Origin: a virus
Taxonomy: Duplodnaviria; Caudoviricetes
IMG/VR virus record: IMGVR_UViG_3300040811_001959
Length of the DNA: 64,000 bases
Reading direction: 5' to 3' (one strand)
Position 1 is the stretch's first letter. The number at the start of each line of letters is the position of its first letter. Position numbers and translations under genes: made by a program. The notes under the pieces are model-generated. The model had not been told where the DNA came from. It saw nothing but the letters and a program-made list of their open reading frames with translations, and did not search any database. This document shows positions 3,784 to 8,545 of the stretch, one piece after another.

Positions 3784-4078
3784 TTTTAACGACCCCGGCG
3801 ATCGGTCCACAATTCCTTCCGGTTAAAGGCTTATTGTTCTACGGCCGCCGATAGCCATTACCCCACCCCCTGGGAAACTGGGGGGCCTCTCCAACTTTTC
3901 AGTTGACTTTTTTAATATTGTATATATAATTATAACTTAACGCTAACAAAGAGGAACTATGTGGAAAACAATTAGAAAGGGTATTACCTTTGAAAGAGTT
4001 TTTTATACCTATCTTATCTTTGCTTGGTTTGCAGGCCTAATAGCATTTGCGAGTCTGCGTTTCTATCATTAATTTTGA

Positions 4079-4153
4079 GTCCCGGTAGTTAAATGGATAT
4101 AACAGTAGACTTCTAATCTTCTATTCTAGGTTCAATTCCTGGTCGGGACACCA
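4079..4153 (+). tRNA. tRNA-Arg (TCT)
   Basis: GTCCCGG/TCGGGAC acceptor stem, loop CTTCTAA, GGTTCAATTCC T-arm, encoded ACCA end. Confidence 0.92.
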
Positions 4154-4205: not shown

Positions 4206-4292
4206 GCGACTGTGGTGAAACAGGTAAACACACTGGACTTAAAATCCAGCGGCAGTGATGCTTTGCCGGTTCGATTCCGGCCAGTCGCACCA
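4206..4292 (+). tRNA. tRNA-Leu (TAA)
   Basis: GCGACTG/CAGTCGC acceptor stem, CTGGA-CTTAAAA-TCCAG anticodon arm, long variable arm, GGTTCGATTCC, ACCA. Confidence 0.95.
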
Positions 4293-5296: not shown

Positions 5297-5582
5297 ATCC
5301 TACTATGATGATGACGGGAAACAATGGCTAGTACAGTTTGGTAATGACTACCAACTCAGCATCATCCGTCATCGTGGTAGTATGGGATACCGTGAAGGAT
5401 TATTTGAAATCGGTGTCTTCGGTGACTGTGACAGCATGGCGGAACTACCAGGTATCACAGCAGAAGGTGATACTGTAAAAGGATTTCTCACACCCGAAGA
5501 AGTTTCTTGTATAATCTTAAAAATGCAATTCCTTACTGACTCACAGCCTCTTTCAGTATTTGGTTTAAGAAATGAAACTTGA
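5256..5582 (+). CDS. hypothetical phage protein
   Basis: YQLSIIRHRGSMGYREGLFEIGV pattern typical of small phage early proteins. Confidence 0.65.
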   Translation: MIMRIDFQKAYASKSYYDDDGKQWLVQFGNDYQLSIIRHRGSMGYREGLFEIGVFGDCDSMAELPGITAEGDTVKGFLTPEEVSCIILKMQFLTDSQPLSVFGLRNET

Positions 5583-6150
5583 AATATTTGAAAATAATAT
5601 TTTAGATATTACTACAAATTTTACTGTACAACAAAAACATTTTTATGATAATATTATTATACTAGTTGACAATTTTTATCAATATCCGCACCATGTAAGG
5701 AATTTTGCAACTAAATTACCTTACTTAAAAGAGACCGATATATCTTATACTGCAGAAGTTATAGTTCCAAATAATATTTTTATTATAGTAGAAGAATTAA
5801 TTAAGGAACATTACCCTCATTTAAGTAAAATAGTTAAGCCTTCAGACACAATAAGATTTAGATTTGTTGACTGTCATAATGAAGAACAAGTAAAAGAAGA
5901 ATGGCATACAGATGGAAAGGGAATAGCAGGTATAATTTTCTTAAATGAAAGACAGAATTCTGGTGGCACAAGTTTCAAGTGTGGCGATACAATTTTAAAT
6001 GTTGAAGGAAGATGGAATAGGCTTATTTTGTTTCCAATGACTTTAGCACACAAACCTTGGTTTGATGACGGAGTATTTGCAGATAGCTATAGAATAACAC
6101 AATTGTTAGCATATAGAATTCGATTAAATAAAATTCTTGAAAATAAATAA
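5572..6150 (+). CDS. 2OG-Fe(II) oxygenase-like protein
   Basis: WHTD (HxD) ... GIIFLN...GGTSF...NRLILF...H facial-triad pattern. Confidence 0.7.
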   Translation: MKLEIFENNILDITTNFTVQQKHFYDNIIILVDNFYQYPHHVRNFATKLPYLKETDISYTAEVIVPNNIFIIVEELIKEHYPHLSKIVKPSDTIRFRFVDCHNEEQVKEEWHTDGKGIAGIIFLNERQNSGGTSFKCGDTILNVEGRWNRLILFPMTLAHKPWFDDGVFADSYRITQLLAYRIRLNKILENK

Positions 6151-6160
6151 ATTTGAAATT

Positions 6161-6237
6161 GGACCTCTAGCTCAATAGGTTAGAGCACACGACTCATAAT
6201 CGTTAGGTTCTCGGTTCAAGTCCGAGGGGGTCCACCA
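6161..6237 (+). tRNA. tRNA-Ile2 (CAT, lysidine type)
   Basis: GGACCTCTAGCTCA...GGTTAGAGCA..CGACTCATAATCG matches the ileX-type pattern rather than Met; ACCA end. Confidence 0.88.
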
Positions 6238-6264
6238 ACACCATTACACCCCAGGAGAATTATA

Positions 6265-6447
6265 ATGGATTTTAATCACTTTGTATTAATGTTAGCTACT
6301 GCATTTGCTTTCGGTATCTTTGGATATGTTCTAGGTGAGCAAGAACGAGAACGGCAAGCAATCGAACGAGGCTTTGCAATCCACTGTCCATTAGATGGTA
6401 AATTTGGTTGGATAGACGAATGCAAAGAAGAACTTGACATACCTTAA
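6265..6447 (+). CDS. small membrane protein
   Basis: AGGAG RBS; N-terminal TM helix. Confidence 0.6.
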   Translation: MDFNHFVLMLATAFAFGIFGYVLGEQERERQAIERGFAIHCPLDGKFGWIDECKEELDIP

Positions 6448-6461
6448 TTACATGCTATAAT
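6434..6461 (+). promoter_or_regulatory. consensus sigma70 promoter for the tRNA-like RNA
   Basis: TTGACA-16-TATAAT with TG extended -10. Confidence 0.75.
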
Positions 6462-6478
6462 AAAGTTATATTGAAAAT

Positions 6479-6565
6479 GCGGGGCGTTCCTTCCAGCTGT
6501 CTTATAAGCAGTCAGCCAAACAGGGAGGCGGTGCTATAGAGGTTCAACTCCTCCGCCCCGTACCA
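6479..6565 (+). ncRNA. non-canonical D-armless tRNA-like RNA, anticodon TAT
   Basis: GCGGGGCG/CGCCCCGT 8-bp acceptor stem, GAGG-TTCAACT-CCTC T-arm, GCTGT-CTTATAA-GCAGT anticodon arm, ACCA end, no D-arm. Confidence 0.75.
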
Positions 6566-6587
6566 CTCAACCCTAATCACCCATCTT

Positions 6588-7271
6588 ATGATATCTAAAC
6601 GTGTACGAGATCGTTTTGTAGCACAACACGGGGAACCAGCTAACCTAGATGAATTAGGACGAGCCCTTGTCGCCCATATCAACAACCTTGGTGAAAGCTC
6701 AAAGGGCCGTGATAAGGGTCAGCGGGTGCTGGGCTTAGTTTGGAATATTAGCTCAGGCGAGCAGTGCAACAGCCACAACGCACCAGTGGGGGTACCATGT
6801 AGCTGGCATGAACCTGAGAGGTTTCCTGCGTTTTATGGTAAGGTATGGCTGAGACTAGCCAAGCCTCCTGGATGGTCTGTTACTGATTACTTTGAGGGTA
6901 CTTGTTGTCACTTAGGATCAGGTGGGGGCGGGTCATATGAAGGCCCATGGGACCAGCTATATGCAACCTGGCATCAGCAGCATAGGCGTTGGCGTACAAG
7001 GATAAAGTTAGACTATCCTGAACCCATCCTTTACAGTTGGACTTTTACTATCTGGCTGCAGGATTGGCCTCTAATCGAAAAGCATTACAGTAAGTTAGAC
7101 ATGCTTGACATGATCAAAGGAGTTAGGGTAGATTACCTTAAACGTAATCATATGTTTACCTATGAAGCAGAAGGCATAGATGCTGCTGATGGCAAATATA
7201 TACAGCAGTATGCCGAGATTGACTACTCTTTTTGTAGAGATAACCTTTTAAACGAGATTTTTAATGACTGA
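6588..7271 (+). CDS. hypothetical protein
   Basis: 227-aa ORF in the + strand run. Confidence 0.7.
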   Translation: MISKRVRDRFVAQHGEPANLDELGRALVAHINNLGESSKGRDKGQRVLGLVWNISSGEQCNSHNAPVGVPCSWHEPERFPAFYGKVWLRLAKPPGWSVTDYFEGTCCHLGSGGGGSYEGPWDQLYATWHQQHRRWRTRIKLDYPEPILYSWTFTIWLQDWPLIEKHYSKLDMLDMIKGVRVDYLKRNHMFTYEAEGIDAADGKYIQQYAEIDYSFCRDNLLNEIFND

Positions 7272-7428
7272 AGAAACTATCCAAGAACTTGAATATATCC
7301 TACGTGAACAGCAGAGTATGCTCAACGAGTTTGCTACTAATATCGCACAGGTAAGTAGGCAGCTTAGAGAAGTAACTGACCTATTAGACGAGGTAAAATA
7401 TGCGAGTGAACATCAGGCGACCGCCTAA
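7264..7428 (+). CDS. small coiled-coil protein (not in ORF track)
   Basis: manual translation MTEETIQELEYILREQQ..., overlapping both neighbours. Confidence 0.5.
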   Translation: MTEETIQELEYILREQQSMLNEFATNIAQVSRQLREVTDLLDEVKYASEHQATA

Positions 7429-7801
7429 GAATCCAGAACGCAATCAACGTGTAGATGTACTAGTTGAACCCCATGACGTATGGAGCTTAGACTGGACACT
7501 TGCACAGATAATACACCCTGCCCTTATGATGTTGAAGCAACAAAAGAATGGGGCTCCTTGGGTTGACCCTATGGATGTACCAGAGGAGCTGAGACCCACA
7601 CCCGAAGAGCTGGCAAACTACGAAGAGGATGCACGTACTGACGAACTGTGGTTTGACCGTTTTGACTACATCTTAGATGAAATGATCTGGGCATTTGACC
7701 AGATAAAGCAAGATGTGAATATCCATTCTAAGTCGGATGCTGCAAGGATCAATAACGCTCTGCGTTTGTTTGGTAAATATTACCAGAGTTTATGGTGGTA
7801 A
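7400..7801 (+). CDS. conserved hypothetical phage protein
   Basis: DVWSLDWTLAQIIHPAL...ILDEMIWAF...LFGKYYQSLWW pattern familiar from large phages. Confidence 0.7.
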   Translation: MRVNIRRPPKNPERNQRVDVLVEPHDVWSLDWTLAQIIHPALMMLKQQKNGAPWVDPMDVPEELRPTPEELANYEEDARTDELWFDRFDYILDEMIWAFDQIKQDVNIHSKSDAARINNALRLFGKYYQSLWW

Positions 7802-7834
7802 TATATTAAGAATTAAATTAACAATTTATAATAA

Positions 7835-8278
7835 ATGGATATGACTAGAACAGAAACAAAAGATCGATTCCATCGGATGGCGAGTGAACTTATGCAGAAT
7901 ATGGATTTCACTCGCATCCATCATACCATGCAGGTGCTAGACTGGCGGTATCAAGGAGAACGGCAGTCTGAGGGTGATATCCGTATTTTTTGCCGCAGAC
8001 TACTACACGAAACAATTGAACGTGTATTAGATTCGCCTACAGGAGAAGCATTCCTAAGCACAGGTGGTTTTGAAATCTCCATTTATCACCCAGACCATTT
8101 AGACGAAGAACGTGCTGGTACATTAGATGTCAAGTTTGTAGTCGAACATGACATGATGATCTTTGACCAGACTAAACAATCAAAAACAAATATACAAGAA
8201 CAGATTGATGAAATCCTAACAAGATTAGACATACTTGAAGACGAAGTTAATCGTTATATTGTAGACTACAGGGAATAA
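7835..8278 (+). CDS. hypothetical protein
   Basis: 147-aa ORF. Confidence 0.65.
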   Translation: MDMTRTETKDRFHRMASELMQNMDFTRIHHTMQVLDWRYQGERQSEGDIRIFCRRLLHETIERVLDSPTGEAFLSTGGFEISIYHPDHLDEERAGTLDVKFVVEHDMMIFDQTKQSKTNIQEQIDEILTRLDILEDEVNRYIVDYRE

Positions 8279-8347
8279 TATGACACGTTATTTAAATTGG
8301 TTCATTGCGGCTATCGTTGTGTTAGCACTTCTTGACCAGGTAGGAAT

Positions 8348-8545
8348 ATGAAATATTTTGTAGTTTGGGCACAGGATTTTGGTTTAGAATATCTCCAGTA
8401 TAAGACTGCACAGGAAGCATTTGGTTTCCTTGAAACACTATTACTGGATGGCGTAGATGCGGACAAGATTATGATCTTCCATGGCGACACGGTTGGTTAT
8501 ACGGTTGAAGAACACAAACATTATACAATTAAAGGAGACGAATGA
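8348..8545 (+). CDS. small hypothetical protein
   Basis: AGGA RBS; ATGA overlap with the next ORF. Confidence 0.55.
   Translation: MKYFVVWAQDFGLEYLQYKTAQEAFGFLETLLLDGVDADKIMIFHGDTVGYTVEEHKHYTIKGDE

Follow-up and report, generated by a model that had tools for sequence, protein, structure and literature searches.

A D-armless tRNA-like gene with a UAU anticodon, a pseudoknotted fold and relatives in phage tRNA arrays

An 87-nucleotide (nt) element in a 64,000-nt stretch of phage DNA (IMG/VR record IMGVR_UViG_3300040811_001959; Duplodnaviria, Caudoviricetes; here called the window) is very probably a real and expressed RNA gene that is under strong selection and has a new tRNA fold. It carries a UAU anticodon and an encoded CCA end, and we consider it probable that the element functions as a non-canonical tRNA of the phage, most likely decoding AUA. 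The features ascribed to it in a preliminary description made from the sequence (acceptor stem, discriminator A followed by CCA, T-arm, anticodon arm, missing D-arm and a 26-nt extra region) were all found again on re-reading (Table 1). The acceptor stem consists of eight base pairs (bp), GCGGGGCG paired to CGCCCCGT, in which pair 1:83 is a G.U wobble (positions in the element count from G1 at 6479), and together with the 4-bp T-stem it makes up a 12-bp acceptor branch. The acceptor and anticodon stems are separated by just 9 nt, UU-CCUUCC-A, and there is no local D-arm hairpin. The anticodon arm (GCTGT-CTTATAA-GCAGT) has a 5-bp stem and a 7-nt loop with Y32, U33, A37 and A38, and the 26-nt region that separates it from the T-arm has the motif GGGAGG within it. 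The hallmarks of a tRNA are thus present: an N73-CCA acceptor, a 12-bp branch, a UUCRANY-type T-loop and a standard anticodon loop, together with covariation in the acceptor and T stems.

The element escapes the standard tools. ARAGORN was blind to it in standard, intron, pseudogene, mitochondrial and tmRNA modes, and a search of Rfam gave no match to the tRNA family RF00005, only one to tRNA-Sec at 21.4 bits against a gathering score of 47. Relatives fared alike: the Rfam tRNA model missed seven further members with the same 8/4 division of acceptor and T-stem pairs, a member with a GUA anticodon among them, and its threshold was barely reached by one family member only, of the 7/5 type; D-armless genes with GUA and UCG anticodons likewise went undetected by ARAGORN. 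A minimal scan, specifying a TTCRANN loop, 12 perfectly paired acceptor-plus-T base pairs and N-CCA, was run on both strands of the 64-kb window. It returned three canonical tRNAs and the element and nothing else, so the element is no chance look-alike, and with perfect pairing the element fitted the 8/4 split only.

Exact and semi-exact patterns and a route through protein neighbours returned the same lineage only; homologues were reached by patterns that left the stems free. One loose pattern (CTTATAA-N28-40-GGTTCRANTCC-N11-CCA), with fixed loops and linkers, matched more than 116 viral contigs. Most of these matches were tRNAs of 90-103 nt with a D-arm and a variable hairpin, called tRNA-Ile(tat) by ARAGORN, and some were D-armless; a pattern tuned to the D-armless form gave 33 contigs. 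Two family models, R1 and R2, describe the acceptor stem, a 2-nt linker, a strand pairing into the variable loop, the anticodon arm, a crossing variable stem, a GG linker and the T-arm. R1 aligns 27 distinct sequences at 33-119 bits, the homologues of the element scoring 33-95 bits, and R2 gives the element itself 101 bits. The family, which is specific to phages, falls into two groups, the 8/4 group of the element, in which pair 8:83 of the stem is G-C, and a 7/5 group of 82-86 nt. Both reside in phage tRNA arrays, often abutting canonical tRNAs, as in contig L205, where a member at 7011-7099 sits between tRNA-Arg (6928-7001) and tRNA-Thr (7100-7176). The discriminator is A in 92 of the 93 unique UAU sequences of the family. 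By blastn the family was absent from 50,697 GenBank phage records, and prokaryote genomes yielded a single match to the family pattern, on a contig of a metagenome-assembled genome (MAG) with a phage-like tRNA array. Contig L213 (JALNZQ010000019.1, labelled as a Methanothrix MAG) is a 20-kb, low-coverage sequence that was binned as archaeal. Besides an array of 11 tRNAs of bacterial type it carries a D-armless UAU gene, and it is probably a phage sequence placed in the wrong bin. Among the loci, which are short, none held both a D-armless and a D-arm-bearing UAU gene, and this mutual absence fits a shared niche.

The D-arm-bearing genes form a set of their own (L069-L184), with about 84 unique class II-like tRNA-Ile(UAU) sequences of 90-103 nt in phage arrays, for example L070:4469-4560 and L212:5995-6087 (Sinorhizobium phage Phosso). 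Their D-arm is short and Sec-like, and they bear a variable hairpin whose 7-nt loop reads YAGAUNN in 75 of 84 of them and in none of the eight D-armless ones. This loop includes GAU, the anticodon of the major tRNA-Ile, and may be an anticodon mimic that recruits IleRS. One D-arm-bearing copy (L137, 3303-3394) was missed by the Rfam tRNA model. Elsewhere in these arrays, ARAGORN reported a tRNA with a four-base anticodon (caaa; L207:5309-5387), which may be a frameshift-type tRNA, in an array that also holds a D-armless UAU gene, and tmRNA genes of phages lie near UAU tRNA genes of the D-armless (L209:6488-6823) and the D-arm-bearing kind (L074:8017-8355).

The evidence that carries the fold is covariation. 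In an alignment fitted to the family model, 97.9% of cells were standard pairs, against 70.8% after shuffling and 49-57% with the partners slid, and 19 of the 23 pairs had changed on both sides, including all eight of the acceptor stem and five of the six in P2, the long-range helix CCUUCC/GGGAGG that stands in the place of the D-stem. Because a model-fitted alignment is biased towards its own structure, two independent tests were added. MAFFT followed by RNAalifold, a procedure blind to structure, recovered the 8-bp acceptor stem, the anticodon stem, the 4-bp T-stem and a 3-bp variable stem, with compensatory changes in all of them; in the anticodon stem these fell at 18:34, 19:33 and 20:32. 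For the variable stem (36-38/55-57), pairs 36:62, 37:61 and 38:60 of alignment A6 covary (GC/AU/CG), and alignment A7 contains the types AGC/GCU, GGC/GCC, GGU/GCC, GAC/GUC, GGGC/GCCC, GCGC/GCGC, CCC/GGG, GCA/UGC and GCG/UGC. The other test, of P2, was free of alignment and found 11 distinct helices of 6-7 bp at one place: CCTTCC/GGGAGG, CCATTC/GAGTGG, CCCTCAA/TTGGGGG, CCTTCAA/TTGGGGG, CCCGGC/GCCGGG, CCTCCC/GGGGGG, CCAACC/GGTTGG, CTTCTC/GAGAAG, CATCTC/GAGATG, CCACCT/AGGTGG and GCCCGC/GTGGGT. Strands scored a mean of 14.2 with their own partners and 9.4 with swapped ones, and none of 10,000 permutations reached the observed value. P2 and the variable stem were tested separately, as MAFFT misaligns the 3′ strand of P2 and the model-fitted alignment misaligns the variable stem.

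P2 (11-16/45-50) and the variable stem (36-38/55-57) cross each other, and the fold is therefore pseudoknotted. Compensatory changes in distant homologues were the test that the preliminary description had set beforehand for a CCTTCC/GGGAGG helix replacing the D-arm, and the helix passed it. The same description was right in expecting a topology other than a cloverleaf; it had overlooked the variable-arm stem, with which the molecule becomes a pseudoknot rather than a simple Y shape. Its register for the anticodon stem (18-22/30-34) is backed by covariation against the thermodynamic minimum-free-energy prediction, which would pair 18-21 with 35-38 around a loop UAUAAGC. That alternative register was rejected, as it clashes with both the covarying variable stem and the 18-22/30-34 stem. 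The dinucleotide GG follows P2 in all aligned members, including GUA members that were found without this motif in the pattern, a conservation that is in part imposed by the D-armless search pattern. By analogy with G18G19 of the D-loop, the GG linker may be the partner of the T-loop.

The element itself is nearly invariant. It is carried by two IMG/VR contigs, one Logan contig and 22 metagenome contigs, and across 24 aligned copies 85-87 of the 87 positions are identical. Its flanks represent at least six unrelated contexts, with identity starting at G1 and stopping after CCA. In contigs L068 and L057 the element, give or take 3 nt, is the sole part that can be aligned to the window; L068, from a phage whose late-promoter boxes are of the T4 type, has it between two other open reading frames (ORFs). 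Among the phages with the element, identity in tRNA-Arg(UCU) ranges from 72 to 100%, its stem changes being compensated, and the PolIII gene of the L053/L056 group shows 72-74% nucleotide identity. Five variants are all that was seen among the aligned copies. G1A turns G.U into A-U and keeps the pairing; C7T turns C-G into U.G, a pair possible in the plus-strand RNA only; T9A falls in the linker; A58G (6536), the majority form, adds a fourth variable-stem pair, C35-G58; the last, G46A, is weighed below. Metagenomes with near-identical DNA come from 14 studies and represent estuary, freshwater, marsh, salt marsh and seawater. Because the stems covary freely elsewhere in the family, the near-invariance suggests that a single allele has spread recently among estuarine and freshwater phages that occur together.

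In four metatranscriptomes, assembled contigs include the element. Run X15 contains a 93-nt contig over 6477-6566 with the highest depth of the run. In X15 and X17 coverage extends from the tRNA(CAU) gene upstream through the element, the short spacer included, and the flanking coding DNA (5600-6148 and beyond about 6640) is uncovered. A contig from X16 departs from the window at 39 positions out of 430, yet only one of these, A58G, is inside the 87 nt. These contigs support expression of the element, short of proving it.

The same scaffold also bears other anticodons. Model R2 returned D-armless GUA genes at L137:905-992 and L165:7686-7773 (the same gene as L214:16103-16190) and a D-armless UCG (Arg) gene at L104:2864-2945; a further GUA gene lies at L171:724-811. 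On L214, a contig of 23.8 kb, ARAGORN listed 38 tRNAs for 19 amino acids, Tyr alone missing; the D-armless GUA gene lies on the same strand, 152 nt past the array, and is the sole Tyr decoder detected there. A working tRNA-Tyr would be expected to present itself in this way. The window has a G+C content of 37%, and in its long ORFs AUA accounts for 39% of Ile codons (25 per 1000), AGA for 39% of Arg codons and UUA for 41% of Leu codons. AGA and UUA are covered by the canonical tRNAs of the phage, as is AUA if its CAU gene is a tRNA-Ile2. Of the two functions that had been proposed for the element, AUA decoder and decoy, neither is decided; we lean towards the decoder because of the residence of the family in arrays, the same scaffold's supply of the sole tRNA-Tyr found in a 38-tRNA array and the heavy use of AUA. 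U36, A37 and A38 of the anticodon loop are as expected of a tRNA reading ANN codons. The 8+4 split keeps the 12-bp branch that is the length recognized by EF-Tu, and 8/4-split tRNAs are active in E. coli (PMC5389517), where an engineered D-armless tRNA is accepted by HisRS, EF-Tu and ribosomes (PMC11551756).

According to the model that we propose, transcription of the element would start early, at a consensus sigma-70 promoter of its own, and include about 10 nt of leader; the RNA would be trimmed at G1 by host RNase P and shortened by 3′ exonucleases down to the encoded CCA. In the folded RNA, as covariation shows, the 8-bp acceptor stacks on the 4-bp T-stem, the anticodon arm is ordinary, and a short variable stem closes a 16-nt loop. 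The surrogate D-stem (CCUUCC/GGGAGG) encloses the anticodon arm and is pseudoknotted with the variable stem; judging from geometry, it could stack on the anticodon stem and so restore the length of the anticodon branch, while the conserved GG past it could touch the T-loop. Charging would most plausibly be with isoleucine, given A35, U36, A37, A38 and A73, and the element may be independent of TilS. The charged RNA would then read AUA on host ribosomes, supplementing the host alongside the phage tRNAs for AGA and UUA.

Several points weigh against a working AUA decoder. Its processing, aminoacylation and decoding are steps that we infer. The RNA data are assembled contigs, which can neither show ends nor exclude carry-over of DNA; the contig with the Tyr gap is a 23.8-kb fragment; and the conservation of GTCTTATAAGC, GGTG and GGTTCAA in the family set is imposed by the search pattern. 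One copy of the element (G46A in contig L050) has an uncompensated C.A mismatch in P2. The phage tRNA(CAU) is possibly a tRNA-Ile2, so that an AUA decoder may be redundant. Left unmodified, U34 might misread AUG; bacterial IleRS as a rule requires G34 or lysidine; and those of its identity elements that lie in the D-arm are missing here. Finally, six allo-tRNA(UAU) species were inactive in E. coli as CUA suppressors, and two killed the cells (PMC5389517).

These allo-tRNAs are the closest described relatives of the element, and their inactivity as suppressors, for which their authors proposed non-translational roles (PMC5389517), is one reason to consider that it might be a tRNA mimic, produced and matured as tRNAs are but bringing no amino acid to the ribosome: a decoy or sponge for a host anticodon nuclease, for another tRNA-targeting defence or for a sensor of uncharged tRNA, or else a regulatory RNA. 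Phage tRNAs are reported to counter tRNA-targeting defences (PMC10264068); a tRNA(CAU) is already on the phage; and the near-total invariance of all 87 positions exceeds that of ordinary tRNAs. The invariance is better explained by recent spread, however, since the stems covary freely in the family. Moreover, the scaffold occurs in arrays with GUA and UCG anticodons, GUA being the sole Tyr decoder found in a 38-tRNA array, and the element keeps its 12-bp branch, A73, CCA, canonical T-loop and an anticodon loop with U33 and A37, which a decoy for a single nuclease would not need. Nothing positive speaks for the decoy idea, and we regard a non-translational role as unlikely.

A reading in which the element is used in translation to recode AUA is more doubtful still. 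Here a class II-like scaffold with A73 would be charged by an anticodon-blind synthetase such as LeuRS, or by another enzyme, and AUA would be read as an amino acid other than Ile, as with the nematode nev-tRNAs, among which a class II tRNA(UAU) is reported to carry leucine (PMC3333845). The element does have a variable arm and A73, it aligns weakly to the phage tRNA-Leu(UAA) over the variable and T region, and the D-armless scaffold is common to tRNA-Tyr-like genes, another class II, A73 identity. Against this, bacterial LeuRS depends on the D-loop and on tertiary elements that are absent here, the A35, U36, A37, A38 signature is that of Ile tRNAs, and systematic replacement of Ile by Leu at 25 codons per 1000 would be costly. 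Least credible of all, and very improbable, is that the 87 nt are a cis-acting leader or partner RNA of the 227-amino-acid gene at 6588-7271, or that they are a decayed tRNA pseudogene or what an attP-type event left of a host tRNA. Between the element and this ORF, which starts 23 nt downstream and follows it in most copies, there is no terminator; in L068, L057, L056, L053, L049 and L066, however, the downstream genes are entirely different, and conservation is sharply confined to G1 through CCA. The leader or partner was rejected on the further grounds that none of 26 viral loci encoding distant homologues of the 227-amino-acid protein carries the element and that the element stands beside other genes. 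An attP site or host-tRNA remnant was likewise rejected, a 22-nt string of T-arm and acceptor being absent from 185,579 prokaryote species genomes. A pseudogene would not exceed functional tRNAs in conservation, and the decayed pseudogene that the preliminary description had named as its refutation is contradicted by this extreme conservation, the promoter of the element's own and its presence in RNA libraries.

A functional tRNA of this shape can be set beside several known systems. The element resembles the allo-tRNA class without belonging to it. With allo-tRNA(UAU) (Mukai et al, 2017; PMC5389517) it shares the 8/4 branch, the UAU anticodon, which is the commonest among allo-tRNAs, a long variable region, first notice as sub-threshold tRNA-Sec matches and, for 8/4 tRNAs, some association with phages. 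The described allo-tRNA(UAU) genes come from soil Acidobacteria, near toxin-antitoxin loci, and allo-tRNAs have a tRNA-Sec-like D-arm with a long stem and a tetraloop, mostly G73 or U73 (Ser identity) and longer anticodon stems (PMC5389517). The element, in contrast, has no D hairpin, A73 and a 5-bp anticodon stem, and in place of the long variable arm of allo-tRNAs it has a variable stem of 3-4 bp whose 16-nt loop is engaged in P2. The 'five-stem-junction' forms of Mukai et al may overlap to some degree with the present family. Metazoan mitochondrial D-armless tRNA-Ser, such as Ascaris suum tRNA-Ser(UCU), also has a short connector in place of the D-arm and is used in translation (PMC7609411). 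Those mitochondrial forms are shortened (short T-arm and variable loop) and flexible, with an unpaired connector and co-evolved factors (PMC7609411), whereas the phage RNA has a full length of 87 nt, its connector is held in a covarying 6-bp helix, and it must suit ordinary bacterial machinery.

The artificial mini HisT (Edelmann et al, 2024; PMC11551756) is D-armless too, and a bacterial synthetase, EF-Tu and the ribosome all accept it; it is limited in vivo by PNPase degradation, and the phage family, if used, would be its natural counterpart with a stabilizing helix. The same 2024 paper states that every bacterial tRNA known so far is a cloverleaf (PMC11551756). Bacterial class II tRNAs (Tyr, Leu and Ser) and the tRNA-Ile(UAU) of phage Phosso share a variable-arm stem with the element, and Tyr and Leu tRNAs its A73; the Phosso gene is further alike in its phage tRNA array, its CUUAUAA loop and the same apparent decoding niche. 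All of these differ from the element in having a D-arm and a compact variable hairpin. In bacteria that lack TilS, such as Mycoplasma mobile, a tRNA-Ile(UAU) reportedly reads AUA without lysidine, and this tRNA is a cloverleaf. The nematode nev-tRNA(UAU) (PMC3333845) demonstrates that a UAU tRNA of class II is possible; it, too, is a cloverleaf, and it carries Leu in a eukaryote. In the literature searched by full text, no D-armless tRNA is described for bacteria or phages.

The surroundings of the element are those of a tRNA region (Table 1). The TTGACA-16-TATAAT promoter proposed in the preliminary description is there, as the sole perfect match within 5500-8500, and would place about 10 nt of leader ahead of G1; TTGAC(A/T)-16/17-TAtAaT boxes lie upstream of the element in most of its different flank contexts. 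The neighbouring gene that had been called tRNA-Ile2(CAU) is a canonical CAU gene about 240 nt upstream, as stated, and is only possibly a tRNA-Ile2: ARAGORN assigns it to Met, and its C4-G69 and C5-G68 fit what we take to be the determinants of TilS. In relatives (L048:16-93, L054:8632-8709 and L064:2555-2632) this tRNA(CAU) has 78 nt and a changed D-arm; its anticodon stem is wholly replaced, with compensation (CCCCG/CGGGA), and its acceptor and T arms are identical. All tRNA genes of the window end in encoded A-CCA, and the element is constructed like the other tRNA genes of the phage. At the start of the tRNA region, 3791-3892 is a GC-rich structured stretch with TTCCTTCC and a CCCCC...GGGGGG hairpin, and neither model of the D-armless family matches it.

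Table 1. Coordinates in the window of the element, its parts and the nearby tRNA genes and promoter.
Feature	Position	Strand	Remarks
D-armless 8/4 tRNA-like gene, anticodon UAU, encoded CCA, 87 nt	6479..6565	+	Sequence, conservation, family model R2
Acceptor stem, 5′ strand	6479..6486	+	Partner 6554-6561, G1.U83 wobble
CCUUCC, 5′ strand of long-range helix P2 in the D-stem's place	6489..6494	+	Partner 6523-6528
Anticodon arm	6496..6512	+	Stem 6496-6500/6508-6512, loop CUUAUAA 6501-6507, anticodon UAU 6503-6505
Variable-arm stem, 5′ strand AGC	6514..6516	+	Partner GCU 6533-6535; crosses P2, giving a pseudoknot
GGGAGG, 3′ strand of P2, inside variable loop	6523..6528	+	
Linker CGGU with YGG, from P2 3′ strand to variable-stem 3′ strand	6529..6532	+	
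Variable-arm stem, 3′ strand GCU	6533..6535	+	Structure-blind covariation
T-arm, 4-bp stem GAGG/CCUC, loop UUCAACU	6539..6553	+	
Acceptor 3′ strand (6554-6561), discriminator A (6562), encoded CCA (6563-6565)	6554..6565	+	
Sigma-70-type promoter TTGACA-16-TATAAT, extended -10 TG	6434..6461	+	12/12 match
Canonical tRNA(CAU)	6161..6237	+	241 nt upstream of element; Met by ARAGORN; 66 bits
tRNA-Arg(UCU)	4079-4153	+	ARAGORN, Rfam
tRNA-Leu(UAA)	4206-4292	+	ARAGORN, Rfam; own TTGACA-16-TATACT promoter

The window comes from a large myovirus-like phage with a terminase, a UvsX-like recombinase, a DnaB-like helicase and a primase, along with a split PolIII alpha, a carbamoyltransferase and many 2-oxoglutarate (2OG) oxygenases. 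Helicases from jumbo phages that infect Sinorhizobium, Agrobacterium and Pseudomonas share 50-54% identity with the one encoded here. The 227-amino-acid ORF downstream of the element has a G+C content of about 50%, above that of its surroundings, no evident Shine-Dalgarno sequence and no match in Pfam or PHROG. Its protein family has 233 detectable members and is uncharacterised; G, P, R, Y and D residues are invariant and W and H nearly so, and one relative of 2165 amino acids holds about 10 copies of the domain.

D-armless tRNAs were previously thought to be confined to animal mitochondria and laboratory constructs. We incline, if only slightly, towards the wider proposition that phages possess a natural tRNA family in which the D-arm has been deleted and its stem rebuilt from the 5′ connector and an enlarged variable loop to give a pseudoknotted five-helix fold, and whose members would be charged and used on bacterial ribosomes for AUA, UAY and CGA. 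Such genes would go unseen by standard finders, and phage tRNA repertoires, with perhaps a resistance to tRNA-targeting defences, would be under-counted. The near-identical 87-nt allele in unrelated phage contexts would provide a clean example of tRNA gene transfer from phage to phage. If the proposition is true, the core of a tRNA can be reconstructed from different strands, and the family would offer a natural scaffold for the design of orthogonal tRNAs. The annotation of phage tRNAs and codon usage would be corrected, as ARAGORN and Rfam miss these genes, and altered tRNA architecture as an escape from host nucleases or from the need for TilS-type modification would become a testable question.

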